NCBI GenBank assembly: GCA_963836205.1
Contig: CAWIIV010000004.1
Span: 1 to 28,608, forward strand
DNA from: an uncultured Acidimicrobiia bacterium
GTDB taxonomy: Bacteria > Actinomycetota > Acidimicrobiia > Acidimicrobiales > AC-14
Reading direction: 5' to 3'
Length of the DNA stretch: 28,608 bases
The notes below the pieces were generated by a model. The model was not told where the DNA came from. It searched no databases and was given only the letters and a program-made list of their open reading frames with translations. Position numbers and translations under genes: made by a program. Positions 11,492 to 28,608 of the stretch are shown piece by piece (position 1 is the stretch's first letter; each line of letters begins with the position of its first letter).

Positions 11492-12514
11492 ATGGAGCAG
11501 GTGCCGGTCCTGTGGCTCACCGCCGGCCTCAGTTGTGACGGCGACTCGATCGCCATGACCGCCGCCACCCAGCCCAGCCTGGAGGACCTCGTGCTGGGCG
11601 CCTTCCCCGGTGTGCCCCGCGTCCGTTTCCACCACCCGGTGCTGGCCTACGAGGTGGGCGACGAGTTCCTGGCCGGGTTCGAGGACGCGGCGGCGGGCAA
11701 GCTCGACCCCTTCATCCTGGTCATCGAGGGCTCCATCCCCGACGAGACGGGCAACGAGGAGGGGTGTTGGGCCGGCTTCGGCACCGACCCCGCGACCGGC
11801 CAGCCCATCCCCACCACCACCTGGGTCGACCGGCTCACGGCCAAGGCGTGGGCGGTGATGGCGGTGGGCACCTGCGCCGCCTACGGCGGCATCCACGGCA
11901 TGGCCGGCAACCCCACCGGCGCCATGGGCCTGGCCGACTACCTGGGCTGGGACTGGCGCTCGCAGGGCGGCATGCCCATCGTCAACCTGCCCGGCTGCCC
12001 GATCCAGCCCGACAACTGCACCGAGACCCTGCTCTACCTGGTCCGCCAGCTGGCCGGGCTGGCCCCGCCGATCCCGCTCGACCACGTCCTGCGCCCCAAG
12101 TGGCTGTTCGGCCAGACCCTCCACGAGAACTGCGACCGGGGCGGCTACTACGAGCAGGGCGACTTCGCCGGCGAATACGGGTCGTCCAAGTGCATCGTCA
12201 AGCTCGGGTGCTGGGGACCGGTGGTCGACTGCAACGTGGGCAAGCGGGGGTGGATGAACGGCGTCGGCGGCTGCGCCAACGTCGGCGGCACGTGCATCGG
12301 CTGCACCATGCCCGGCTTCCCCGACAAGTTCCAGCCCTTCCTCGACGAGCCCCCGGGGGCGAGGATGTCGTCGTCGGCGGTGCTGCTCTACGGACGGTCG
12401 GTACGGGCCCTGCGCAACGTGACCCGTGCGTCGATGAACGTCGAACCGGAGTGGCGAGGGCCGCTGCCGAAGGGACTGCGGACCGCGGGCGACGACCCGC
12501 CGACCGGCGGGTGA
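11492..12514 (+). CDS. hhyS: [NiFe]-hydrogenase small subunit, group 1h/5 type, no TAT leader
   Basis: LWLTAGLSCDGDS.AMTAATQPS (Cys/Asp proximal ligands), EGSIP, GTCAAYGG, PGCP, HENCDR, KLGCWGP..CN, C.NVGG.CIGCTMPGFPD. Confidence 0.92.
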   Translation: MEQVPVLWLTAGLSCDGDSIAMTAATQPSLEDLVLGAFPGVPRVRFHHPVLAYEVGDEFLAGFEDAAAGKLDPFILVIEGSIPDETGNEEGCWAGFGTDPATGQPIPTTTWVDRLTAKAWAVMAVGTCAAYGGIHGMAGNPTGAMGLADYLGWDWRSQGGMPIVNLPGCPIQPDNCTETLLYLVRQLAGLAPPIPLDHVLRPKWLFGQTLHENCDRGGYYEQGDFAGEYGSSKCIVKLGCWGPVVDCNVGKRGWMNGVGGCANVGGTCIGCTMPGFPDKFQPFLDEPPGARMSSSAVLLYGRSVRALRNVTRASMNVEPEWRGPLPKGLRTAGDDPPTGG

Positions 12515-14283
12515 CCGACACCGGCCCCCACCTGGTCGACAAGACGTGGGACCCGATCACCCGCATCGTCGGCAGCCTCGGCATCCACGCCCGCATCGAC
12601 TTCCGTGACCGCAAGGTGGTGCGCTGCCACAGCACGTCGTCGATCTTCCGGGGCTACAGCGTGTTCATGAAGGGCAAGGACCCCCGCGACGCCCACCAGA
12701 TCACCAGTCGCATCTGCGGCATCTGCGGCGACAACCACGCCACCGCCTCCGTCTACGCCCAGCAGATGGCCTACGGGATCAAGCCCCCGCACCTGGCCGA
12801 GTGGATCGTCAACCTGGCCGAGGCGGCCGAGTACATGTTCGACCACAACCTCTACCAGGAGAACCTGGTGGGGGTGGACTTCTGCGCCCGCATGGTGGGG
12901 GAGACCAACCCCGCGGTGCTGGCCCGGGCCGAGGTCACCGAGTCGCCCCACGCCGACGTCCACGGCTACCGCACCATCGCCGACATCATGCGGGCGTTCA
13001 ACCCCATGGAGGGTGCCCTCTACCTGGAGGCGCTCAAGATGAGCCGCCTCACCCGGGAGATGTTCTGCCTGATGGAAGGGCGCCACGTCCACCCGTCGCT
13101 GTTGTACCCGGGCGGCGTCGGCACCGTGCCCACGGTCCAGCTCTTCGACGACTACCTGGTGCGGCTGGTGAAGTACGTCGAGCACCTCAAGCGCATCGTC
13201 CCTCTCCACGACGACCTCTTCGACTTCATGTACGAGGCCCTGCCCGGTTACGAGGAGGTCGGCCGGCGGCGGGTGCTGCTCGGCTCGTGGGGCTCGTTCC
13301 AGAACCCGGAGACGTGCGACTTCCGCTACGACCACATGACCTCGTGGGGCCGCGACATGTTCGTCACGCCCGGCATCGTGGTCGACGGCGATCTGGTCAC
13401 CACCGACCTGGTCGAGATCAACCTGGGGATGCGGATCCTGCTCGGCAGCTCGTTCTACGAGGACTGGGCCGAGGGGGAGACCTTCGTCACCCACGACCCC
13501 CTGGGCCACCCCGTCGACCAGCGCCATCCCTGGAACCAGACCACCTCGCCCCGGCCCCAGCGGCGCAACTTCGAGCCGGGCGGCCACTACACGTGGGTGA
13601 TGTCGCCCCGGTGGCTCGATGCCCGCACCGGAGAGCATCTCGCCCTCGACACCGGCGGAGGCCCCCTCGCCCGGCTGTGGGTCACCGCCCTGGCCGGCCG
13701 GGTGCACACCTCCTACGTCGACGCGCCGGGCGACGGGTCGGTGCGCATCCGCCTCCCCCGCACCGCCCACCTACCCGAGACCGAGCTCACCTGGCGGGTG
13801 CCGCGGTGGTCGAACACCATCGAGCGCGACCGGGCCCGCACCTACTTCCAGGCCTACAGCGCGTCCATCGCCTTCCACTTCCTGGAACAGGCGATGGCGG
13901 AGGTGAGCGCGGGCCGGCTCGACGTGTGGACGCCGTTCGAGGTGCCCGACGAGGCCGTCTCGTGCGGGTTCCACGAGGCGGTACGGGGCGTCCTGTCCCA
14001 CCACATGGTGATCCGCAAGGGCCGCATCGCCAACTACCACCCGTACCCGCCCACCTGCTGGAACGCCAGCCCCCGGGACTCGTTCGGCACCGCCGGCCCC
14101 TATGAGGACGCGGTCGCGGGATCGCCGGTGTTCGAGGAGAACGGGGCCGACCAGTTCAAGGGCATCGACATCATGCGCACCGTCCGCAGCTTCGACCCCT
14201 GCCTGCCCTGCGGCGTCCACCTCTATCTGGGCGGGGGAAAGGTGCACCGGGCCCTCCACGGCCCCACGCTCGGGGTCCGGTGA
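12511..14283 (+). CDS. hhyL: [NiFe]-hydrogenase large subunit, group 1h/5 type (590 aa)
   Basis: The GTG overlaps the hhyS TGA. Motifs: WDPITRIVGSLG, L1 TSRICGICGDNH, L2 SFDPCLPCGVH, plus a 20-aa C-terminal extension. Confidence 0.95.
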   Translation: MTDTGPHLVDKTWDPITRIVGSLGIHARIDFRDRKVVRCHSTSSIFRGYSVFMKGKDPRDAHQITSRICGICGDNHATASVYAQQMAYGIKPPHLAEWIVNLAEAAEYMFDHNLYQENLVGVDFCARMVGETNPAVLARAEVTESPHADVHGYRTIADIMRAFNPMEGALYLEALKMSRLTREMFCLMEGRHVHPSLLYPGGVGTVPTVQLFDDYLVRLVKYVEHLKRIVPLHDDLFDFMYEALPGYEEVGRRRVLLGSWGSFQNPETCDFRYDHMTSWGRDMFVTPGIVVDGDLVTTDLVEINLGMRILLGSSFYEDWAEGETFVTHDPLGHPVDQRHPWNQTTSPRPQRRNFEPGGHYTWVMSPRWLDARTGEHLALDTGGGPLARLWVTALAGRVHTSYVDAPGDGSVRIRLPRTAHLPETELTWRVPRWSNTIERDRARTYFQAYSASIAFHFLEQAMAEVSAGRLDVWTPFEVPDEAVSCGFHEAVRGVLSHHMVIRKGRIANYHPYPPTCWNASPRDSFGTAGPYEDAVAGSPVFEENGADQFKGIDIMRTVRSFDPCLPCGVHLYLGGGKVHRALHGPTLGVR

Positions 14284-14301
14284 CCCCGGGTCGGTGACCG
14301 A

Positions 14302-15807
14302 GTGAGCGACACCGGCCCCGTCGACGTGGCCGGGCTGGAGGCGCACCTGGCGGCGATGGCCGTCGGCGACAGCGAGGCCCTGGAGGCCATGCTCCGCCTG
14401 GCCGAGGTGGTCTTCCCGGGACGGGTGGGCATCGGCGACCGGGAGCGAGTCGTGTGGCCGACCGCCGGCCACCACCACGGTGGCGCCGCCCATCCGGGCG
14501 ACGACGCCGACCTCAGCGAGCGCGACCAGCTGGCCGCCAACGTGCGTCGATCGGAGGTCCGCTTCCAGTCCCTCGTGGAACAGGTGCCGGCGGTGGTGTT
14601 CTCCGCCGCCCTCGGCGACGCCGACAACGAGGTCTACGTCAGCCCCCACATCGAGACCGTGCTCGGGTTCACCCAGCAGGAGTGGCTGACCAACCCCCTC
14701 CTCTGGTACTCCCAGCTCCACCCCGACGACCACGACGTGGTGATCGAGGCCTTCACCCGGGGCGTGCAGACGGGGGGGCCGTTCCGGGCCGAGGTGCGCT
14801 TCATCTCCCGCGACGGCGAGGAGGTCTGGATCCTGGGCGAGGCCCGCCTCATCCGCGACGACGCCGGCCGGTTGGCCTACTTCCAGGGCGTGGGCTTCGA
14901 CATCACGCCGTCCAAGCGGGCGCAGGCGATGATGGCGGAGGCCGAGCACGTCCGGGTGGAGGCGGCCCAGCTCCTGGCCGAGGTCTACGCCGCCCGCAAC
15001 GTGGAGCTGGCCGAGCTCAACGAGCAGCTACGGGTGGCGGTGGACCAGGCGGAGGCGGCCGAGGCCCTCCAGCGCCAGCTCCTGGCCCGGGAGCGGGAGG
15101 TCGTCGACCGCCTGACCCGCCTCGACCGCGACAAGAACGACTTCGTGTCCAGCGTCAGCCACGAGCTGCGGACGCCCGTCACCAGCATGCTGGGCTACCT
15201 GGAGATGCTCGGCGACGGCGACGCGGGGCCGCTCAACGTCCAGCAGACCCGCATGCTGGAGGTGATCAGCCGCAACAGCCGGCGGCTCCTCAACCGCATC
15301 GAGGACCTGCTGACGGTGTCGGGCGTGGAGGCGGGCAAGATCCGGCTGACGCTGACGCCGGTGGCGGTTCCACTGCTGATCGAGTCGGCGGTGGCGGCCA
15401 TGGCCCCGGCCCTGTCGGGACGGGAGCTGAAGCTCACGGTCGACGTGGCCGACGACGCCATGACCGTCACCGCCGACGCCGAGCACCTCGACCGGGTCCT
15501 CATCAACCTGTTGAGCAACGCGGTCAAGTTCACGCCCGACGGCGGCCGGATCTCGGTCTCGGTGGGCCGGCAGGGCGACACGGTGGCGCTGGTGGTGGCC
15601 GACACCGGCCTCGGCATCCCCGAGGACGAGCAGTCGCGGGTCTTCGAGCGGTTCTTCCGGTCGTCCAACGCCCAGGAGCTTGCCATCGCCGGCACCGGGC
15701 TGGGCCTGGTGATCGTGAAGGGGATCGTCGAGCTCCACGGGGGGGCAGTGGCACTGCGGTCGACCCCCGGCGTCGGCACCGAGGTCACCATCAGCCTCCC
15801 CGCCTGA
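14302..15807 (+). CDS. Cytoplasmic PAS-domain sensor histidine kinase
   Basis: PAS/PAC (YVSP...LHPDD...DIT), coiled coil, H-box SHELRTP, N-box NLLSNAVKFT, DTGLGI, FERFFR, GTGLGL. No TM segment and no receiver domain. Confidence 0.93.
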   Translation: MSDTGPVDVAGLEAHLAAMAVGDSEALEAMLRLAEVVFPGRVGIGDRERVVWPTAGHHHGGAAHPGDDADLSERDQLAANVRRSEVRFQSLVEQVPAVVFSAALGDADNEVYVSPHIETVLGFTQQEWLTNPLLWYSQLHPDDHDVVIEAFTRGVQTGGPFRAEVRFISRDGEEVWILGEARLIRDDAGRLAYFQGVGFDITPSKRAQAMMAEAEHVRVEAAQLLAEVYAARNVELAELNEQLRVAVDQAEAAEALQRQLLAREREVVDRLTRLDRDKNDFVSSVSHELRTPVTSMLGYLEMLGDGDAGPLNVQQTRMLEVISRNSRRLLNRIEDLLTVSGVEAGKIRLTLTPVAVPLLIESAVAAMAPALSGRELKLTVDVADDAMTVTADAEHLDRVLINLLSNAVKFTPDGGRISVSVGRQGDTVALVVADTGLGIPEDEQSRVFERFFRSSNAQELAIAGTGLGLVIVKGIVELHGGAVALRSTPGVGTEVTISLPA

Positions 15808-19941: not shown

Positions 19942-20601
19942 ATGGCGACGCTGAGCACCACGACGACGAACGCGGGCCTGCGAAGAACCACGAGGCGGGC
20001 CGGGTTGGTGGGCTTCCTCCTGGCGGCGATGGTGGCCTGCAGCGGATCGGACTCGGACGACGGGGCGAGTCCCATCTCGGCCCCCGGGTCGACGCCGACG
20101 ACGGCCGCCGGTGGGGGGTCGGGCGTGACCACATCGGCCCTGGCGCCCGTTACCACCGAGCCTTCCCGGCCACCCGCCACGAGGGGGCCTCAGACGGTCG
20201 TCGTCGGGCCCGTCACGTTCCACGTCCCGGCCAACTGGACCTCGTTCGAGAGCGGCGGCTCCACCTACGTGGGTGAGAGCGCGGGTAAGCAGGGACACAT
20301 GAACCTCATCGTGACGACTGACTACGGCGGGACCGTCGACGCCCTCCGTCACGACCGGTGCCAGGGTGACGGGACCCACGAGTCGAAGCCACCAGCGAAC
20401 GTGGAGCTGATCGAGTCGGGGTTCGAACCGGTGGGCCGCGCCACGGCCGAGTTCCGCCGGTGGCGTTTCGCCTGCCCGGACTCCGAGATCACGGTCGAGG
20501 AGCACCGGGCCTGGCTCCTTCCCGTATCCCGCGTCGGGATCGTCGAGCAGCGCCACGTCCCCCAGGTGCTCGACGTGGTCACGACCGCCGAGGTGGCCTG
20601 A
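19942..20601 (+). CDS. Putative lipoprotein
   Basis: GAGG RBS, basic n-region, hydrophobic h-region, lipobox-like MVAC-SG, Ser/Thr/Pro linker, and a two-Cys domain. Confidence 0.7.
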   Translation: MATLSTTTTNAGLRRTTRRAGLVGFLLAAMVACSGSDSDDGASPISAPGSTPTTAAGGGSGVTTSALAPVTTEPSRPPATRGPQTVVVGPVTFHVPANWTSFESGGSTYVGESAGKQGHMNLIVTTDYGGTVDALRHDRCQGDGTHESKPPANVELIESGFEPVGRATAEFRRWRFACPDSEITVEEHRAWLLPVSRVGIVEQRHVPQVLDVVTTAEVA

Positions 20602-20718
20602 CCCTCCCAAGGAGATGGCGGGCCGCGGGTTAGGCCTGGGGCACCATGGCCAGGTTGAGGCACAGACGCGAGGGCACTCATCACCCCGAGTTACCTTACA
20701 AGATGTATGCTTATCTGC

Positions 20719-20913
20719 ATGCAGAGCACAAGCGTTCGCATCGATCTAGCCACACACGAAGAGCTCAAGCGACTTGCCGCGGAGCTCAATACCACTGTCG
20801 GCAACACCGTGTCTCTTGCAGTTCGCGCGCTTCGCCAAGACCGCGTCGGCGAGGACCTCACGGCACCGCTTCGTGAGGACGAGACTGCCTGGCTCGATGC
20901 CGACGTCGGGTGA
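20719..20913 (+). CDS. Antitoxin (RHH-like, MazE role), probably leaderless
   Basis: MQSTSVRID..THEELKRLA with an acidic C-terminus. It overlaps the toxin start by 17 bp, and TATGCT at 20706-20711 lies 7 nt before the ATG. Confidence 0.75.
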   Translation: MQSTSVRIDLATHEELKRLAAELNTTVGNTVSLAVRALRQDRVGEDLTAPLREDETAWLDADVG

Positions 20914-21238
20914 TGTCGTTGATCTCGAGCTAGGCCCGCCGGAAGGACGAGAGGCGGGATTCCGCCATCCAGCGATCATCGTTACGGCCCAACGAATCCT
21001 CGATGCCCGACCTTCGGTCGTCCACGTCGTCCCGCTCACGAGCACCGTTCGCTCGTTTCACTCCGAGGTCGTGCTCGAGCCCGACAGCAGCAACGGCCTC
21101 GATGTCGTATCGGCGGCGCAGTGCCAGCACATCCGAGCCGTCTCGCGCCATCGGATCATCGACGTGCGCGGCAACGTCGGCACCACCGTGCTGAGCCAGC
21201 TGCGCGAGACCATCGCCGTCATCCTCGATCTGCCCTGA
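20897..21238 (+). CDS. mazF: PemK/MazF-family endoribonuclease toxin
   Basis: GDVV..ELGPPEGREAG.RHPAIIV...VVPLTS...SAAQCQHIRAVS..R....G. Confidence 0.88.
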   Translation: MPTSGDVVDLELGPPEGREAGFRHPAIIVTAQRILDARPSVVHVVPLTSTVRSFHSEVVLEPDSSNGLDVVSAAQCQHIRAVSRHRIIDVRGNVGTTVLSQLRETIAVILDLP

Positions 21239-21392
21239 CGACGACAACGTCGCGCGATATGGCACGAGAGCGCACCCGTAGCCGTCGTTCCGTACGGCAT
21301 GTGGATCACCTAGTCGGCGCGCTCGTGGTTCCTTGGCCACGGCGGTCTTCGACCAGCAGCACGTCGGGCGGCACCGCGACAAGACTGTGGCC

Positions 21393-21821: not shown

Positions 21822-22066
21822 TCGGCCGCTACCGGACCCCACCACGTCCGGCGGCAACGCTGGCGGACCGCGCCGAAATCGGCGGTCCGGCGCGTTGGGC
21901 CCTGGCGGCGGTGCGCGCTAGATCTTCGCGACAGAACGTGCGTAGGTTGCGGTCTTCAACCTGACGCTGGGCCTGGTCGGCTCCAGCCTCCGGGTCCCGT
22001 TCGACCCGGAGCTGCGACATGACAATGAACGATGCGACCCCGACGACGGAGATCGCGGTCCTCGAT

Positions 22067-22104
22067 GGGGTACGGCCAAGATAAGCCCGAAACCCGCAGT
22101 AGAG
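22067..22104 (+). repeat. Left 38-bp terminal inverted repeat of a Tn3-family transposon
   Basis: GGGGTACGGCCAAGATAAGCCCGAAACCCGCAGTAGAG has GGGGT at 1-5, CGAAA at 22-26, GT at 33-34 and AG at 37-38, as in the Tn3 IR. It lies 181 bp upstream of tnpA, and the partner IR is not in the window. Confidence 0.7.
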
Positions 22105-22285
22105 ACGCCAGCGGCGTCTGGTTGAGCCTCTGACCGCTCAACCGAACAGGCGTACGACGCTCAGCGGGCCCAGGACGCCCGGAAGCTGAACCCGACGACA
22201 CCCGGCAGCCCGCTGACTGGCCCGGGATCGGGCGAGCGCGATCAGCCTGACGTTGGTAGGTTCGCCTTCGGATGGACCTGGGCCG

Positions 22286-25200
22286 ATGACGTCGATCGAG
22301 CGGACCGCCTATCCCCGCTTCGGGCGCCTGGTGAGCGCCCGGGAGCTGACGGGCCTCAGCCCGTCGGCCGAGGAGGTTCTCTGGGCAAGGGACCGTGCTC
22401 GGTCCGATGCGCATGTGCTGGCCTTGGTGGTCTCGCTCAAGTGCTTCCAGCGCCTGGGGTACTTCCCGAGGCGTGACGATATCCCCGTCGCCGTCGTCGA
22501 CCACCTGCGTCGCTGCCTCGAGCTCCCCGAAGGGATCGATCCCGATGTGGGGTCCGAGCGGACGGGGACGTCCCAGCATCAACTGATCCGGGACAAGGTC
22601 GGGGTGGCGCTCGACCCGGAACGGGCGCGGATGGTCGCCGCCGAGGCGATCCGGGCCGCGGCCGAGGTCAAGAACAACCCGCCCGACCTGATCAACGTGG
22701 CGCTGGAGATGATGGTGAAAGCGTCGCTGGAGCTGCCTGGCTTCTCCACCCTGGACGCGATGGCGTCGCAGATCCGGGGGGAGGTGAACACTTCCATCTT
22801 CGAGCGGATCGCCAGTCGCCTGACGCTGCGCGACGCCAGGGTCCTGCAGCAGCTGCTGGACGTGATCGCGCCCGCCCGCACCACCCGGTTCAACGAATTG
22901 AAGAAGGTGGCCGGGCGGGCGTCGTGGTCGGCCTTCCGCGAGCAGGTCAGCCATATGGCGTGGGTCGACTCGCTCGGAGACACCTCGGTGTGGCTGGAGG
23001 GCATCGCCGAGTCCAAGATCGCCGACTTCGCGGGCGAGGCGTGGGCCGCGGATGCTGCGGTCATGGGTGACGTCGCCCCGCTGAAGCGCACTGCACTGCT
23101 GGCCTGTGTGGTCCACGTCGGCCGACAGCGTGTCCGCGACGACCTGGCGGAGATGTTCTGCAAGCGGATCGCCTCCATCACCAAGCGGGCCAAGACCGAG
23201 CTCGAGGAGATCCGGGCCCGGCAGCAGGAGCTGTCGGAGCGCCTCATCGAGCACTACCGCGACGTGCTCGTCCACCTGGACCCCCGCGGCGCATCCCAGT
23301 CGGCGGCGCTGGATCTGGCCAGGGCAGCAGTGGAACGGGCCGGAGGCTTCGAGGCCGAGCTGGCCGACATCGAGGCCGTCGCCGCCCATCACGCCAACCA
23401 CTACATGCCCTTGGTCGATCGCAACTTCCGCCGGGACCGGGCCACGATGTTCGCCTTCGCCCGGACCGTCGCGCTGGAGGCGACCAGCGCCGATCGCTCG
23501 GTCCTCGACGCCCTCGACCACGCCCTCGCCCATTCCCACCTGACCCGTGACCACATCCCGGGCCATGTCGACGGGGTGGCGCTCGACCTGTCGTTCGCCT
23601 CGGAGCAGTGGCAGCGCCTGGTCCGCGGCCGCGACGACAAGGGCCGGCTGGCCCGGCGCCATTTCGAGGCGTGCGTGTTCACCTACCTGTCCGACGCCCT
23701 GCGCACGGGCGACGTCGCGGTGAAGGGTTCCCAGGCCTTCGCCAACTGGTCGGCCCAGCTCCTGCCCTGGGAGGACTGCCGCGCCCTGTTGGGCGAGTAC
23801 TGCGCCGAGGCGGGCCTGCCCACCACCGCGGCCGCCTTCACCGAGCAGCTGAAGGCGTCGCTCGTGGCCAAGGCGGCCGAGGTCGACGCCGGCTACCCCA
23901 ACAACGCCGACCTGGTCATCGACGAGGTCACCGGGGTGCCGTCGTTGAAGCGCCGCCGGGGCCAGGACCGCAGCGCCAGCGCGGTGGCGCTGGAGGAGGC
24001 GATCAAGGAGCGCATGCCCGAGCGGTCGCTGCTCGACATCCTGGCCCGCACCGCCTATTGGCTCGACTGGTGGCGGCGGTTCGGGCCGGCATCGGGGGCG
24101 GACCCCAAGCTGGCTGACCCGCTGCGGCGCTACGTCCTGACGACGTTCGCCTACGGGTGCCTGCTCGGCCCCACCCAGGCCGCCCGCCACATCCGGGGCG
24201 TGTCCGCCCACGAGCTGGGGGCCACGGCCAACCGACACTTCAACATCGACAAGCTGAACCAGGCCATCGTCGACGTGGTCAATGCCTACCTCGGCCTCGA
24301 CCTGGTCAAGGTGTGGGGCGACGGCTCCTCCGTCGCCGCCGACGGCACCCAGCTCGACACCCTGATCGACAACCTCCTGGCCGAGTCCCACATCCGCTAC
24401 GGCGGCTACGGCGGCATCGCCTACCACCACGTGGCCGACAACTACATCGCCCTGTTCAGCCACTTCATCCCCTGCGGGGTGTGGGAGGCGGTCTACATCG
24501 TGGAGGGGTTGCTGAGGAACGAGTCCGAGGCCCAGCCGGGGACCGTCCACGCCGACACCCAGGGCCAGAGCTACCCGGTGCACGCCTTGGCCCATCTCTT
24601 CGGCTTCGACCTGCTGCCCCGGATCCGCAACTGGAAGGACCTCATCTTCTACCGGGCCGACGCCGACACCCGCTACCTCCACATCGACGCCCTGTTCGGC
24701 GAGGAGGGCCAGAACACCGTCAACTGGCGGCTGATCGAGACCCACTGGCAGGACCTGATGCAGGTCGCCCTGTCGATCCGAGAAGGCAAGCTGTCCTCGA
24801 CCCTGCTGCTGCGCCGGCTCGGGACCGAATCGCACCGCAACAACATCTACAAGGCGTTCCGGGAGGTGGGCCGGGTCGTGCGCACCATCACGCTCCTGCG
24901 CTTCATCTCCGAGCCCAAGCTGCGGGAGGAGATCACCGCCGCCACCAACAAGGCCGAGGCCTACAACGGCTTCTCGGGCTGGCTGATGTTCGGCAACGAG
25001 GTGATCGCCCGCAACGACCCGGCCGAGCAGGAGAAGATCCTCAAGTTCAACTCGCTGGTGGCCAACTGCGTGATCTTCCACACCACCCTCGACATGATGG
25101 CCGTGATCCGGCTACTCATCGCCGAGGGCTGGGTGGTCGACCCCGATGATGTGGCCACGATGTCCCCCTACCTCACGGAGCGGATCAAGCGCTTCGGCGA

Positions 25201-25291
25201 CTACGCCACCGATGGCCTCTCCGAGCCGCCCGAGGCCTTCGACCCTCACCTCGACCTTCCGGAGTCGGCCGCCGCCGGCGCCGCCGCCTGA
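22286..25291 (+). CDS. tnpA: Tn3-family transposase (1001 aa)
   Basis: MTSIERTAYPRF start, FQRLGYF, DDE residues in ADGT / HADTQGQS / NKAEAYN, LPRIRNWK, and C-terminal SPY....IKRFGDY. Confidence 0.95.
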   Translation: MTSIERTAYPRFGRLVSARELTGLSPSAEEVLWARDRARSDAHVLALVVSLKCFQRLGYFPRRDDIPVAVVDHLRRCLELPEGIDPDVGSERTGTSQHQLIRDKVGVALDPERARMVAAEAIRAAAEVKNNPPDLINVALEMMVKASLELPGFSTLDAMASQIRGEVNTSIFERIASRLTLRDARVLQQLLDVIAPARTTRFNELKKVAGRASWSAFREQVSHMAWVDSLGDTSVWLEGIAESKIADFAGEAWAADAAVMGDVAPLKRTALLACVVHVGRQRVRDDLAEMFCKRIASITKRAKTELEEIRARQQELSERLIEHYRDVLVHLDPRGASQSAALDLARAAVERAGGFEAELADIEAVAAHHANHYMPLVDRNFRRDRATMFAFARTVALEATSADRSVLDALDHALAHSHLTRDHIPGHVDGVALDLSFASEQWQRLVRGRDDKGRLARRHFEACVFTYLSDALRTGDVAVKGSQAFANWSAQLLPWEDCRALLGEYCAEAGLPTTAAAFTEQLKASLVAKAAEVDAGYPNNADLVIDEVTGVPSLKRRRGQDRSASAVALEEAIKERMPERSLLDILARTAYWLDWWRRFGPASGADPKLADPLRRYVLTTFAYGCLLGPTQAARHIRGVSAHELGATANRHFNIDKLNQAIVDVVNAYLGLDLVKVWGDGSSVAADGTQLDTLIDNLLAESHIRYGGYGGIAYHHVADNYIALFSHFIPCGVWEAVYIVEGLLRNESEAQPGTVHADTQGQSYPVHALAHLFGFDLLPRIRNWKDLIFYRADADTRYLHIDALFGEEGQNTVNWRLIETHWQDLMQVALSIREGKLSSTLLLRRLGTESHRNNIYKAFREVGRVVRTITLLRFISEPKLREEITAATNKAEAYNGFSGWLMFGNEVIARNDPAEQEKILKFNSLVANCVIFHTTLDMMAVIRLLIAEGWVVDPDDVATMSPYLTERIKRFGDYATDGLSEPPEAFDPHLDLPESAAAGAAA

Positions 25292-25442
25292 GGCCACCCG
25301 GTGGGACGAGAGGGCGAGCCGACCTGGGAGCCGACCAGCGCAATGGGTCTGATCGCCAGCATGATCGACGGCCAGCTCGCCAGCCGCGATCTCGAGGTCG
25401 GTACGGTGTGGCTGCTCCGGGGCCCGGGTGGTTGAGGGCGCA

Positions 25443-25832
25443 ATGCGACCCTTCGCACCCATGACCATCGAGCACCTCGCCGCCCACGTGGCGAAGGAGA
25501 TCGACGCCGATCGCAGGTGGATGCTCCTTCTGGAGTTCCTCGAGGAGTACGAGCACGAGCCAACACCGATTCGGCGCTCTCTGATTGAGGCCGAACCGGG
25601 AACCGTCGGCGACGACCGCTGGAACGCCCTGCTCGCCGGCGTTGCCGAATGGCTCGCCGTCCGGGACGACTTCGCCCCGCCGGCGTGGGTCCACGCCCCG
25701 AAGCGCAGCCTCAGCGATATGTGGTGCCCGCACACCCTGGCCTCACTGCGACGACTGGCGGATGACAATGTCCCCCCAGAGATCCGCCGCCACGGGGTGC
25801 TCATCGACCCCTACGACCTCGCCCGAGCATGA
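25443..25832 (+). CDS. Putative antitoxin/partner of the nucleotidyltransferase
   Basis: EP...GDDRWNALLAGVAEWLA......PAW...PPE.RRHGV.I...DL pattern. Its stop overlaps the next ATG (ATGA). Start could be 25428-25461. Confidence 0.6.
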   Translation: MRPFAPMTIEHLAAHVAKEIDADRRWMLLLEFLEEYEHEPTPIRRSLIEAEPGTVGDDRWNALLAGVAEWLAVRDDFAPPAWVHAPKRSLSDMWCPHTLASLRRLADDNVPPEIRRHGVLIDPYDLARA

Positions 25833-26365
25833 GCGACCCGCTCCTCAGTCGAGCCCAGCTCCATGAGGCACTGGAGAACCTGGCCCGCCGCCTGCACCGT
25901 CGGGGCGTCCACGCCGAGCTCTACGTCTTCGGCGGCGGGGCCATGGTCCTCGGCCACAACGCCCGAGAGGCGACTATGGACCTCGACGCCGCCATCCGCC
26001 GGGGCCACGGGGCGGTCACATCCGAGGCTCAGGCCGTGGCCCGCGAACTGGGCTTGCCAAGCTGGTGGCTGAACGAGCAGGCGACTGCCTACCTTCCGGC
26101 TGCCCCCGACGACGAGGCCAGGACGGTGCTCGCCCTTCCGGGACTCACGGTGATCGCAGCGTCGCCTCGCCACCTCCTCGCCATGAAGGCTCGCGCCGCC
26201 CGTCAGCGCGACGTCGCCGACATCATCACCCTGGCTCGCATCGTCGGGGCGACGAGTGCGGAGCAGGTCGTCCGCCTAGCCGAGCAGGTCTTCGGAGGGG
26301 AGATCCTCACCGAGCGGAGCAGGGCCGTGCTCGCCGACCTGGACGACACCCTGGCCGGCGGCTGA
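25829..26365 (+). CDS. Pol-beta-superfamily nucleotidyltransferase (DUF6036/AbiEii-like), putative toxin
   Basis: LYVFGGGAM......REATMDLDA (GG...DxD), WLN, LLAMK..A.R.RD..D. Confidence 0.75.
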   Translation: MSDPLLSRAQLHEALENLARRLHRRGVHAELYVFGGGAMVLGHNAREATMDLDAAIRRGHGAVTSEAQAVARELGLPSWWLNEQATAYLPAAPDDEARTVLALPGLTVIAASPRHLLAMKARAARQRDVADIITLARIVGATSAEQVVRLAEQVFGGEILTERSRAVLADLDDTLAGG

Positions 26366-26408
26366 CCTCGCGGACCCTCCTCGTACCCGGCCGTTTCCGA
26401 GATCGAGG

Positions 26409-26520
26409 CGCCCGGAAATCAACTTCAGAGAACATTCCTTCTCTGAAGTAAGCTTCCGGGCGTGGCTTCAGAGAACACGCCTCACCTGCCTTTAGCCGGG
26501 GCTGATTTCGCTTCAGAGAA
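26409..26520. other. Site-specific recombination (resolution) site: inverted core plus two direct accessory repeats
   Basis: ACTTCAGAGAA (26422-32), spacer CATTCC, TTCTCTGAAGT (26439-49). Outer arms CGCCCGGAA (26409-17) and TTCCGGGCG (26454-62). CTTCAGAGAA recurs at 26466 and 26511. Confidence 0.85.
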
Positions 26521-27451
26521 TAGGACGGACTCACCCGGCCCTCGACATGGGCGGGCCCCGGTCGACCTGGCTGACCGCTGGGCGGCGGAGCAGACCGCGT
26601 ACGTTGCGGCGCTAGCGACGGCCCCACTGGCGGCCCAGACCCGCCGCACCTACGCCTCCAAGGCCCGCCAGTACTTGGCCTGGCTGGCGGTCGCCGAGGT
26701 CGATGGCGACCCCCTCGGGTCCAAGGACGGCCGGGACTGGGCGGTGCGGGACTACCGCAGCCACCTCCAGGCCACACTCAAGCGGAAACCGGCGACGGTG
26801 AACAGTGCTCTGGCGGCCGTGGACGACTTCTACACCCGGCGGGGCCTCGGGCCGGCCAGCGCGCTGCGCGTCGACCTACCAGATGCCGCACCCCGAGCGC
26901 TCAGCGCCCGGGCCCAGGTCCGGTATCTCCGAGCCGTCAGCGCTTGCCCGTCGCCCCGAGACCAGGCGCTTGCCCTCATCCCGTTTTATGCCGGCGCCCG
27001 CATCAGCGAGATCGTCGGTCTCGACGTGGACGACGTCCGGCTGTCTGCACGCAAGGGGATGCTTCGGATCTTCGGCAAGGGCGAGCGGGTCCGAGAGGTG
27101 CCGATCCACCCCAAGCTGGTCAAGGTGCTCACCGGGTGGCTCCGCGAGCGGCCTGACTGGCCCGGGAGCGACTCTGCGGCACTGTTCCTGAACCAGCGTC
27201 GTGGCCGCCTCAGCGTCAAGGCTGCGCACGACATCATTACTGGCATCTCCAGCGGGGCGGGGCTCGAAGACGAGATCACTGCCCACGTCCTGCGCCACAC
27301 ATTCGCCACGACGCTGGTGCGGGGCGGTACGGACCTCGTCATCGTCGCCGAGCTCCTGGGCCACGCCCGACTCGAGACCACCCGCGGCTACACCCGCCCC
27401 ACGGCAGCGGATCGCGCCCGGGCGCTCGACCTTCTCGCCGTTGACGAGTGA
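26462..27451 (+). CDS. Tyrosine recombinase (XerC/D-like, TnpI-type resolvase role); start uncertain
   Basis: N-terminal SAM-like domain (TRRTY...YLAWL, PATVN), YAGARISE (R), GKG (K), HVLRHT (HxxR), LLGH, TT.GY (Y). Confidence 0.92.
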   Translation: MASENTPHLPLAGADFASENRTDSPGPRHGRAPVDLADRWAAEQTAYVAALATAPLAAQTRRTYASKARQYLAWLAVAEVDGDPLGSKDGRDWAVRDYRSHLQATLKRKPATVNSALAAVDDFYTRRGLGPASALRVDLPDAAPRALSARAQVRYLRAVSACPSPRDQALALIPFYAGARISEIVGLDVDDVRLSARKGMLRIFGKGERVREVPIHPKLVKVLTGWLRERPDWPGSDSAALFLNQRRGRLSVKAAHDIITGISSGAGLEDEITAHVLRHTFATTLVRGGTDLVIVAELLGHARLETTRGYTRPTAADRARALDLLAVDE

Positions 27452-27692
27452 GATCAAATGGGTCCCCGGGCCGGCGACCCGGGGTTGCGGGTGGTGGGGC
27501 AGGGCCTTGCTTGGATCGAATGCTGCTCTCGGTTCGGCTGGGCCGCGCCGACAACTCCCACATCAGGTTCTGTCAGCACACTGGCTGGCACGCGTAACAA
27601 GCGCACGGCGTGCCCCGCCAGGGAGATGAGCGGCTCCACCAGTACCGCCGTTGCCCGTCCACACCCGCCCACACCCCGCCCGCCGAACGCCG

Positions 27693-27790
27693 GTGAGGAT
27701 CCTCGACCACCGCACCGAGCGGTCCAAGACCTTCACCCCCGGTACCCCCGGGCAGTTCCGCACGGGAGCTCTACGCCGAGCGATGCACTA
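27693..27790 (+). pseudogene. Possible degraded IS4-like transposase fragment
   Basis: With one frameshift it reads VRILDHR...PGQF/ARELYAER, loosely like IS4-family 'DP..FPA.EL..LY..RW'. Weak. Confidence 0.2.
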
Positions 27791-28003
27791 CAAGGACCCG
27801 GGGGCGTCTTAAGGGAGTAGGTGTCCGAAACACTCTTGACACGGGAAGGCGACCGAGCCAAGGTGACATGGGTTGGGCTGGGCCTACGGTGGAGGCGAGC
27901 GGACGTGGCCGGCTGCGTGTTGGTGATGCGTGAGGCGGTGCATCGATATGCGTCGCAACGTGCTGACCTTTCCCGGTTGTCCTGTGCCCTCGAAGATTAA
28001 GAA

Positions 28004-28543
28004 GTGGTAGAGAACAGCGTCCGTCTGTTCTTGGTTGCCCTTCTACTGCTCGCAGCTGGCGAGAAGCTGGTTGAGCTTCTTCGCAGAACAGATCGCTGGC
28101 ACCCACTAATAATTCAGTCACCGTTCCGTAGGCGACACTCGGCCTTGCTATTCGCCGGTTCAGCGTTGACCGAGGTTGCGATAGCAGGGGCGATCCTTGG
28201 AGGCATTCAACCATACGCTGGGTATGTTGCCGGCGCCTTGATACTTTCGTATTCGTGGTTAGCAGTGACGACGCCGGGCAATAGGCGTTCCAAGCCGCCA
28301 TGCCGGTGTGTTCATCGACTGCTGGACGCCCCCACGGTATCTGCCCTGGTTCTTCGGAATAGCCTGATAGTCATCCTGACGCTCTATGCTGCAGGCGGCG
28401 ATTCACCCGTCGCAATAACTGCCGAGTCGGTTGCGCTCTGTCTCACACTTCTAGCGTTCATCTCTGTCCTGATGCGCCTGTTCATTCCATTCGCATTAGC
28501 TGGCAACCATCATCTACCAAAGCAAAGCACCACTCTAGGGTGA
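28004..28543 (+). CDS. MauE/DoxX-like redox-associated membrane protein
   Basis: LLLLAAGEKL, TEVAIA, several TM helices, CxC (CRC) followed by LVLRN. Visibly lower GC than the host genes. Confidence 0.7.
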   Translation: MVENSVRLFLVALLLLAAGEKLVELLRRTDRWHPLIIQSPFRRRHSALLFAGSALTEVAIAGAILGGIQPYAGYVAGALILSYSWLAVTTPGNRRSKPPCRCVHRLLDAPTVSALVLRNSLIVILTLYAAGGDSPVAITAESVALCLTLLAFISVLMRLFIPFALAGNHHLPKQSTTLG

Positions 28544-28557
28544 CTGGAGCATCCATC

Positions 28558-28608
28558 ATGAACGAAGTAGCACAGTGGGCACTCCTTGTGACGATCAGTG
28601 TGCTTGTT
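28558..28608 (+). CDS. Start of a membrane-anchored protein, truncated by the window edge
   Basis: GGAG RBS followed by MNEVAQWALLVTISVLV. Confidence 0.5.
   Translation, partial: MNEVAQWALLVTISVLV

Follow-up and report, generated by a model that had tools for sequence, protein, structure and literature searches.

A putative nucleotidyltransferase toxin–antitoxin pair as cargo of a one-ended Tn3-family transposon copy with Tn4430-style resolution in an uncultured Acidimicrobiia bacterium

The 28,608-nt contig CAWIIV010000004.1 from an uncultured Acidimicrobiia bacterium (assembly GCA_963836205.1), analysed here over its whole length and called the window, contains what we read, with a probability of about 0.68, as a one-ended copy of an actinobacterial Tn3-family transposon with Tn4430-style resolution, whose cargo is a nucleotidyltransferase (NTase) toxin together with an antitoxin-like protein. 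As a backbone this is an ordinary Tn3/TnpI element from an actinobacterial clade; what is new is the family to which the putative toxin and antitoxin belong and its repeated capture. A first-pass annotation of the same DNA had described positions 22067–27451 as a Tn3-family transposon with a tyrosine resolvase and an embedded NTase toxin–antitoxin (TA)-like pair, listing six features on the + strand [inverted repeat (IR), tnpA, partner gene, NTase, resolution site and tyrosine recombinase], and each of these was recovered at the same place or close to it. The window is the entire contig C4 of an assembly of 25 contigs that is 88.6% complete. The features are the following (ORF, open reading frame):

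22019–22066, + strand: remnant of the target gene, the first 16 codons of a tyrosine-recombinase gene (homology to an uninterrupted gene in genome G421)
22067–22104, + strand: left IR (IRL), 38 bp, starting GGGG (unique; conserved in relatives)
22286–25291, + strand: tnpA, Tn3-family DDE transposase (PF01526, DUF4158, NF033527)
25443–25832, + strand: partner gene, 129 aa, putative antitoxin (homologous clusters; structural model)
25829–26365, + strand: DUF6036 NTase, 178 aa, putative toxin (PF19502 above cut-off)
26409–26520, + strand: resolution site (IRS; four motif copies, palindrome)
26462–27451, + strand: tnpI-like tyrosine recombinase, 329 aa (PF00589)
27452–28608, no strand: DNA after tnpI in place of a right IR (low GC, MauE-like ORF, reaches the contig end)

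The NTase and its partner protein

The sole cargo of the window copy is the partner/NTase pair, in which the start of the NTase gene overlaps the stop of the partner gene by 4 bp (ATGA). The NTase is assigned to DUF6036 by its profile score (PF19502, 27.6 bits against a cut-off of 23.6) and has at least 605 homologous clusters; Pfam matches of the pair are limited to DUF6036, DUF2204 and DUF7582. Among 30 aligned NTase homologues at E ≤ 0.01, DUF6036 was matched by 28, AbiEii (PF08843) by 17 and DUF2204 by 17, which agrees with a TA-like pair whose NTase falls in the broad AbiEii/DUF6036/DUF2204 group. Residues G35, G36, T49, D51, D53 and R125 are invariant and K120, D128 and D131 nearly so, giving the motifs GG...TxDxD and, later, K...RDxxD. 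A seemingly similar succession (GG...T-x-D-x-D, then a K...RDxxD-like motif) occurs in MenAT/AbiE systems, where the antitoxin gene also lies upstream of the NTase gene, as the putative antitoxin gene does here. By eye only, the conserved residues resemble T39, D41, K137 and D152, given as the catalytic residues of MenT1 in the portion of that study available to us (PMC10435456), and the two proteins are similar in size (178 aa against 195 residues for MenT1 chain 8an4_A). PADLOC matched an AbiEii model to residues 14–60 of the window NTase at E 0.0029. The pair departs from MenAT/AbiE (DUF1814) in that its NTase scores as DUF6036, with only the N-terminal motif region aligning to AbiEii, and in its partner protein, which has no relationship to COG5340/AbiEi or to MenA1 (68 aa). 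Antitoxins of MenAT and AbiE systems are diverse and come with or without helix-turn-helix (HTH) domains.

The partner protein belongs with 70 homologous clusters, and a profile search returned 1,902 cluster representatives at E ≤ 0.001 (526 at E ≤ 1e-10). It has no Pfam, NCBIfam or PADLOC match, its Atlas matches are only unnamed actinobacterial clusters, and a PDB sequence search with the partner and NTase profiles gave nothing meaningful for either. The structural model is all-helical (predicted local distance difference test, pLDDT, 92.5); its best Foldseek match had E 2.4, with none at E ≤ 0.001, and its best VIA match had Z 4.9, which is background for helical models. When 20 longer partner homologues were scanned, an N-terminal Xre-type HTH (HTH_3/HTH_31) was found in 11, a fusion to a DUF6036 segment in 2, an AbiEi_4-like HTH in 1 (24.2 bits, just below the cut-off of 25) and no domain match in 6. 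At ten genome loci with the partner domain, seven of them HTH-fused, the NTase lies immediately downstream on the same strand in every case (10/10). Antitoxins classically have a DNA-binding domain joined to a neutralizing one, and their genes precede those of the toxins.

Conservation, mobility and decay of the pair

A metagenome scan with the partner alignment yielded 80 loci, and pairing was counted in the 55 of them with at least 560 bp available downstream. The NTase directly follows the partner in 46 of these 55 loci (38 with at least 150 aa covered, 8 partial). Ten loci encode a partner at least 64% identical to that of the window, and at seven of the ten the pair travels with Tn3 genes, in agreement with the first-pass annotation.

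Two backbones are involved. The window-type backbone carries the pair at four loci (window, L006, L097 and L122), the tnpA genes of L097 and L122 being 80–87% identical to that of the window. A second backbone, present at L084, L086, L089 and L091, has the order IRS - tnpI - tnpA - partner - NTase, with a TnpA only 23% and a TnpI 42–43% identical to the window proteins. Two copies of it are 87% identical over 5.2 kb, and their homology stops at a GGGG-type end, GGGGTCATCTGAG..., ~115 bp past the NTase gene, so that the pair lies inside the second element too. The left end of this L091-type element was not found at a threshold of at least 23/38, and an inverted-repeat search for it was also negative; locus L090 has a reversed recombinase fragment only. 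The pair therefore appears, from these comparisons, to have been captured by two unrelated TnpI-type Tn3 backbones, at the place where Tn3 elements keep their TA modules. Just inside the right-end IR of the second backbone (L091 8940–9033; L086 5637–5674) there is a partial copy of the element's own TnpI-binding motif, TCCACTAA, reminiscent of the additional DR2 repeats close to the Tn5401 termini that are mentioned in the available part of a survey of Tn3 elements (PMC7157771). Contig L091 also holds, at 14499–14708, 5.6 kb past the second-backbone element, residues 245–314 of a recombinase 87% identical to the window TnpI, which places both transposon types on one contig.

Some copies of the pair have decayed. 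The partner is intact while NTase residues ~41–112 are deleted in L006, and likewise while NTase profile positions 32–117 are deleted in L196; L122 is a more strongly decayed remnant. Loss of the toxin with the antitoxin kept is the usual course of TA decay. Such a case within the Tn3 family, Tn5501.5, is described in the survey text consulted (PMC7157771). These patterns fit a partner that would be the antitoxin and an NTase that would be the toxin, and we consider it probable that the pair is a TA system of this polarity.

The resolution site and the tyrosine recombinase

The motif CTTCAGAGAA occurs four times, at 26423 (+), 26439 (−), 26466 (+) and 26511 (+), where 0.41 occurrences were expected; none of 100 shuffles reached four. 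The first two copies form an inverted core (IR1 26423–26432 and IR2 26439–26448, with a 6-bp spacer) within the 24-nt arms of a palindrome (26409–26432/26439–26462), and the last two are direct repeats (DR1 26466–26475 and DR2 26511–26520). On this evidence the IRS has the layout of Tn4430, in which one motif makes up both the inverted core and a pair of direct accessory repeats. As far as the published account could be consulted, the IR1–IR2 core of the Tn4430 IRS serves TnpI strand exchange, the DR1/DR2 accessory motifs impose resolution selectivity and a 9-bp sequence is common to all four motifs (PMC2847244). The motif starts are offset by 16, 27 and 45 nt in the window and by 16, 26 and 45 nt in the related elements L008 and L072 and in a Nocardiopsis plasmid element (L180), and the DNA between the motifs diverges among these four. 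In L072 both core arms carry matching changes (CTTTAGAGAA / TTCTCTAAAG), as is expected for a protein-bound palindrome.

The recombinase (26462–27451) matches PF00589 at E 1.4e-32 and contains ARISE at residue 179, HVLRH at 275, LLGH at 298 and TRGY at 307, which we take to hold the R...HxxR...Y catalytic residues of tyrosine recombinases. Its homologues in L072, L008 and L169 are 65–70% identical. GTG 26462 is the only in-frame start before residue 95, so DR1 and DR2 fall within the first 20 codons of tnpI; for the Nocardiopsis homologue, GenBank likewise places the start at the corresponding GTG ahead of DR1. DR1 and DR2 are spaced by exactly 45 nt (15 codons), in frame with tnpI, and each encodes ASEN. 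In the L091-type element the DRs are upstream of the ATG start. The profile matches together with the Tn4430-type IRS agree with the first-pass call of a Tn3-family element resolved by a TnpI-like tyrosine recombinase, and that the window holds a Tn3/TnpI/IRS element is almost certain.

The transposase and its relatives

The ORF of tnpA (22253–25291) opens at TTG 22253 and matches PF01526 (E 1.9e-127), DUF4158 (E 1.6e-25) and NF033527 (625.7 bits, with the cut-off at 500, over profile positions 14–951 of 954). Relatives, among them some 81–88% identical, begin to align at residue 9–12, which makes the in-frame ATG 22286 the likely start. A scan for TnpA relatives with one genome per species gave 78 loci. 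The close relatives L006, L007, L008, L072 and L074, whose TnpAs are 72–88% identical to that of the window (tnpA being fragmented in L007), come from metagenome-assembled genomes labelled Acidimicrobiales, Actinomycetota or Solirubrobacterales; L007 contributes nothing here beyond its broken tnpA and its IR match.

The organization of the backbone can be read from these copies. The relative in genome G001 (L008; C3:107990–123510) is 15,521 bp long, has an IR at each end and is flanked by the target duplication ATAGA (5 bp); an IS66-family transposase gene has inserted into its tnpA (PF03050; L008 7900–10200), and its cargo slot between tnpA and the IRS is filled by a copper-resistance cluster (CopC/CopD, SCO1 and DUF1775; L008 13000–21700). 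A relative in G002 has both IRs over a span of 3,963 bp, an internally deleted tnpA and no clear target duplication. Window homology to L008 and L072 ends at 25254–25257, near the tnpA stop, and that to L008 resumes at 26423 (IR1). In three copies (G001, G002 and G002:C41, the last being L176) the right IR (IRR) lies 31–37 bp past the tnpI stop. The paired IRs and the position of the IRR in these relatives indicate the canonical form IRL - tnpA - cargo slot - IRS - tnpI - IRR. In L176 (~430–1527) the right IR is split by an insertion sequence (IS) of ~1 kb. This IS has GGGGTATC... ends, encodes 327 aa in a minus-strand ORF and has a repeated TTGCCGGT on its flanks.

In a quick maximum-likelihood tree of 23 TnpAs, for which support was taken only from the Shimodaira–Hasegawa-like approximate likelihood ratio test (SH-aLRT), the TnpAs of the window and L006 group with two from Streptomyces plasmids (51–53% identical to that of the window) as their sisters, with 100% SH-aLRT. 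This clade falls in an unresolved group with Bacillaceae tnpI-tnpA and Pseudomonas elements (43–46% identity), and the L091, L086 and L180 backbones form a very distant branch. The Streptomyces plasmid relatives are organized differently, with a serine recombinase or with an integrase upstream; the serine recombinase downstream in one such neighbour indicates that the resolvase type has been shuffled among related TnpAs.

The left end and the interrupted target gene

The IRL (GGGGTACGGCC..., 22067–22104) occurs once in the window and once in the genome. It is matched at 31–35 of 38 positions beside tnpA in L006, L007, L008, L072 and L074, and in a whole-genome pattern search G001 and G002 each had its counterpart together with an inverted partner copy. 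Window positions 21870–22066 are 97% identical to G421:C14 (L213), from another genus of the same family, and this homology ends exactly at 22066. Its stop, set against the uninterrupted target gene, fixes the exact left end of the element. In G421 the ORF runs on as an intact 307-aa tyrosine recombinase (PF00589, E 3e-27), and alignment to it places the transposon insertion after codon 16 of this second tyrosine-recombinase gene. The remainder of the interrupted gene is missing from the assembly, where C24 offers the sole match, a paralogue at 68%. The 197 bp next to the IRL (21869–22066), which correspond to the promoter and 5' end of the 307-aa recombinase gene, are 90–97% identical in three genomes: G421 (two copies), G411 (one) and G407 (one). 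Judged from these copies, the interrupted gene looks like part of a multi-copy mobile element itself.

The missing right end

The first-pass annotation had given 22067–27451 for the transposon and had proposed to look for the right IR downstream. Position 27451 proved to be the end of tnpI and not that of the transposon, and no right IR was found in the window or the assembly: a pattern search with up to 3 mismatches in window and genome returned nothing, an ungapped scan gave at best 22/38 in the window and 25/38 across all 25 contigs, and a gapped local alignment of 27452–28608 scored 16 against a shuffle mean of 16.5. Directly past the tnpI stop the window diverges from every relative. The DNA that follows is single-copy in the genome and contains an ORF for a MauE-like membrane protein (28004–28543; PF07291, E 3.6e-09), with a further ORF starting at 28559. 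Reconstruction of the right junction from an empty site was unsuccessful, as the region after tnpI has no counterpart in related genomes.

Either the right end has been deleted, or it is parted from tnpI by inserted DNA that runs beyond the contig end; that it is lost or displaced is very probable. Since no right IR exists in the window or assembly, the copy is to be regarded as truncated or rearranged and not as a complete transposon, and it is probably no longer mobile on its own. The more specific possibility that the element is intact, with an inserted segment separating tnpI from an IRR beyond the contig end at 28608, is somewhat unlikely. The IS that splits the IRR of L176 offers a precedent, the DNA after 27451 is foreign in composition (GC 0.61 after 27500, against ~0.70), a search of 40 related genomes did not find it in 39 of them (the exception being a weak 110-bp match in G420), and the assembly is incomplete and in 25 pieces. 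Against it stand the lack, anywhere else in the assembly, of an IR-like sequence at 25/38 or better beyond chance-level matches, and the absence of the 3' part of the interrupted target gene as well.

Relation to known elements

The window element resembles Tn4430 and Tn5401, as far as their published description was available, in having a tyrosine recombinase beside an IRS with an inverted core and two direct repeats (PMC2847244). It differs from them in gene order (tnpA - cargo - IRS - tnpI, whereas theirs is IRS - tnpI - tnpA), in the core spacer (6 bp between 10-bp arms, against 4 bp between 14-bp motifs in Tn4430) and in having DR1 and DR2 inside the tnpI reading frame. A tnpI-tnpA element of B. 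thuringiensis, which may or may not be Tn4430 or Tn5401, encodes a recombinase 33% and a TnpA 36% identical to those of the window.

The combination of a leading tnpA with a tyrosine resolvase, which the first-pass annotation had offered as possibly undescribed, is already known. According to the part of its description that we could consult, Tn4556 of Streptomyces fradiae comprises an IR-L, tnpA (TTG, nt 200), two cargo genes, a 324-aa PF00589 resolvase and an IR-R (PMC6403206). It thus shares with the window element 38-bp IRs, a tnpA near the IR-L (the ORF opens 187 nt from the window IRL and ~200 nt from the Tn4556 IR-L), cargo in the middle and a tyrosine resolvase at the far end; the resolvase of Tn4556, compared by published description only, is on the complementary strand (PMC6403206), and its cargo is there given as a methyltransferase and an isoprenyl diphosphate transferase, without a TA pair. 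The Nocardiopsis flavescens plasmid element (CP054934.1; L180) likewise has tnpA, cargo, IRS and tnpI on one strand, with a TnpI 44% identical to that of the window. In contrast, its TnpA is 22% identical and on another deep branch, its motif is CTTCTGGAAA, and its cargo is a TetR regulator, a tautomerase and alcohol dehydrogenases, without the NTase pair.

TA cargo beside the resolution site is a known Tn3 pattern as well. In the survey of Lima-Mendez et al. (2020), as far as its text was available, 39 of 190 Tn3-family elements carry TA pairs, mostly directly upstream of the resolvase gene beside res (PMC7157771); among tnpI-type elements, Tn5401 and TnBth4 have a TA pair beside the IRS. The window pair occupies the corresponding place, antitoxin first, directly upstream of IRS and tnpI as had been noted from the sequence (NTase stop at 26365, IRS palindrome from 26409, tnpI from 26462), and, as with those modules, its acquisition by different backbones was apparently independent. 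The toxins of the 39 systems are given as ParE, Gp49, PIN_3, PIN or HEPN, with no NTase toxin among them, and neither ‘Actinobacteria’ nor ‘AbiE’ is mentioned in the main text as consulted (PMC7157771). The accessible part of the TnCentral preprint counts eight transposon toxin genes, ‘abiEii’ included, in 43 transposons and does not there name the carrier of abiEii (bioRxiv 10.1101/2021.05.26.445724); among the literature matches listed, it alone links an NTase toxin with a Tn3 element, and ‘DUF6036’ occurs in no paper of the literature searched.

Proposed function and alternative explanations

By the habits of the family, TnpA would act on the 38-bp IRs and form cointegrates, which the TnpI-like recombinase would resolve at the IRS, with strand exchange at the IR1–IR2 core as in Tn4430. 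TnpI binding may also repress the recombinase's own gene, because DR1 and DR2 overlap the start of tnpI. The pair would be translationally coupled, giving the 129-aa helical antitoxin and then the 178-aa MenT/AbiEii-like NTase toxin; the latter would most likely nucleotidylate RNA, for example tRNA 3' ends, and the pair would serve either in addiction, stabilizing the transposon or the replicon that carries it, or in abortive infection.

A broader proposal goes beyond the window, and we hold it tentatively, at slightly less than an even chance: that DUF6036 NTases and the helical partner domain constitute a widespread TA family, in which the toxin is a compact cousin of MenT/AbiEii and the antitoxin domain, alone or fused to an Xre HTH, has no detectable relative of solved structure; that one branch of the family was captured at least twice by actinobacterial TnpI-type Tn3 elements, each time immediately downstream of tnpA and in the service of the transposition module; and that the stand-alone antitoxin lacking an HTH is expressed under transposon control and does not regulate itself.

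Several observations weigh against the main reading of the locus. The window NTase has no Pfam AbiEii match even at E ≤ 10, and when hhalign set it against nine genuine AbiEii proteins of related genomes, the alignment (71.8% probability, E 3.5e-5) extended over only 46 N-terminal columns, with the C-terminal motifs unaligned. The structural model of the NTase is of mediocre quality (pLDDT 78.2); among matches over its whole length the best, MenT1 8an4_A, is a weak one (Z 3.9, root-mean-square deviation (rmsd) 5.5, 128 residues, rank 23 among the rows listed), the best VIA Z of 5.0 is background for helical models, and Foldseek returned nothing at E ≤ 0.001 for the NTase any more than for the partner. 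The window partner lacks a DNA-binding domain. Nine of the 55 loci with room downstream have no NTase after the partner, and no Tn3 gene was seen in the available DNA for 3 of the 10 closest pairs or for any of the 70 more distant ones. Finally, no fully intact copy of the backbone was present among those examined, each relative being disrupted, deleted or cut by a contig end.

The pair might instead be mainly AbiE-type anti-phage cargo, acting by abortive infection and not as an addiction module for the transposon, which we regard as unlikely. The AbiEii matches (PADLOC, E 0.0029; Pfam, 17 of 30 homologues), the AbiEi_4-like N-terminus of one long partner homologue and the defence-like cargo of Streptomyces Tn3 relatives (e.g. 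trypco2/TPR, AAA ATPase) speak for it, but no phage context was seen, and 70 of the 80 pair loci are far from any detected mobile gene. The two functions are compatible and are not separable by the present data.

Modification of a small molecule, in the manner of aminoglycoside or lincosamide resistance, with the partner as an accessory or regulatory protein and no toxin involved, is improbable. Tn3 cargo often consists of resistance genes, an AAC(3) gene lies near a related tnpA (L165), and the NTase has the size and two-lobed layout of ANT(2'') 4xje_A; the structural match to the latter (Z 3.6, rmsd 7.2, 116 residues aligned, rank 45) is at background level, like that to MenT1. However, no NCBIfam model, those for resistance included, matched at E ≤ 0.01, an upstream partner gene that overlaps the NTase gene, is strictly conserved and has HTH-fused forms points to a TA system, and repeated loss of the NTase core with the partner kept would be unexpected for a resistance gene under selection.

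A reversal of roles, with the partner as a HEPN-like toxin and the NTase as an MNT-like antitoxin, is highly improbable: HEPN toxins carry a conserved Rx4-6H motif, and none of the 26 invariant columns of the partner alignment is a histidine, so the motif is absent; no HEPN fold was among the structural matches of the partner; the fused HTH is antitoxin-like; and loss of the NTase core beside an intact partner, as in L006 and L196, would be lethal were the partner the toxin. The partner is nevertheless all-helical and of ~130 aa, and HEPN-MNT, found in TnSod9, is the sole NTase-containing TA system reported for Tn3 elements in the part of the survey consulted (PMC7157771).

Surroundings of the element

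The window has a GC content of ~0.70–0.75 by composition scan. Window positions 20000–21291 are repeated in the same assembly, at C3:9735–11028 (98% identical) and C5:1–152 (100% identical to the first 152 bases); these copies point to a second repeated element, which borders the transposon on its left and also lies at the end of a contig. A gene resembling that for the small subunit of NiFe-hydrogenases (PF14720, PF01058) is followed ~1.8 kb later by a PAS histidine kinase gene (window 11492–15807), and this stretch may encode a hydrogenase of the regulatory (sensor) kind. Elsewhere the contig is chromosomal in look, with genes for an AlkZ-like glycosylase, UbiA and short-chain dehydrogenases/reductases. 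A scan for promoters and terminators gave 0 promoter-like sites and was uninformative.

Significance

The backbone represents ordinary Tn3 biology and the window copy is defective; it is the cargo that is of interest. The IRS geometry, kept across elements with the motifs CTTCAGAGAA, CTTCTGGAAA and CTTCCACTAA, provides material on specificity versus architecture in TnpI/IRS systems. The pair is also an entry point to two unstudied families, DUF6036 and the partner family (~1,900 representatives and no Pfam model). Among the 190 elements surveyed in 2020, the consulted text records no toxins other than ParE and those of RNase type (PMC7157771). If the pair is a working TA system, an NTase class of toxin would join the TA modules built into Tn3 elements, and the Tn3 TA pattern would extend to TnpI-type elements of the Actinomycetota.

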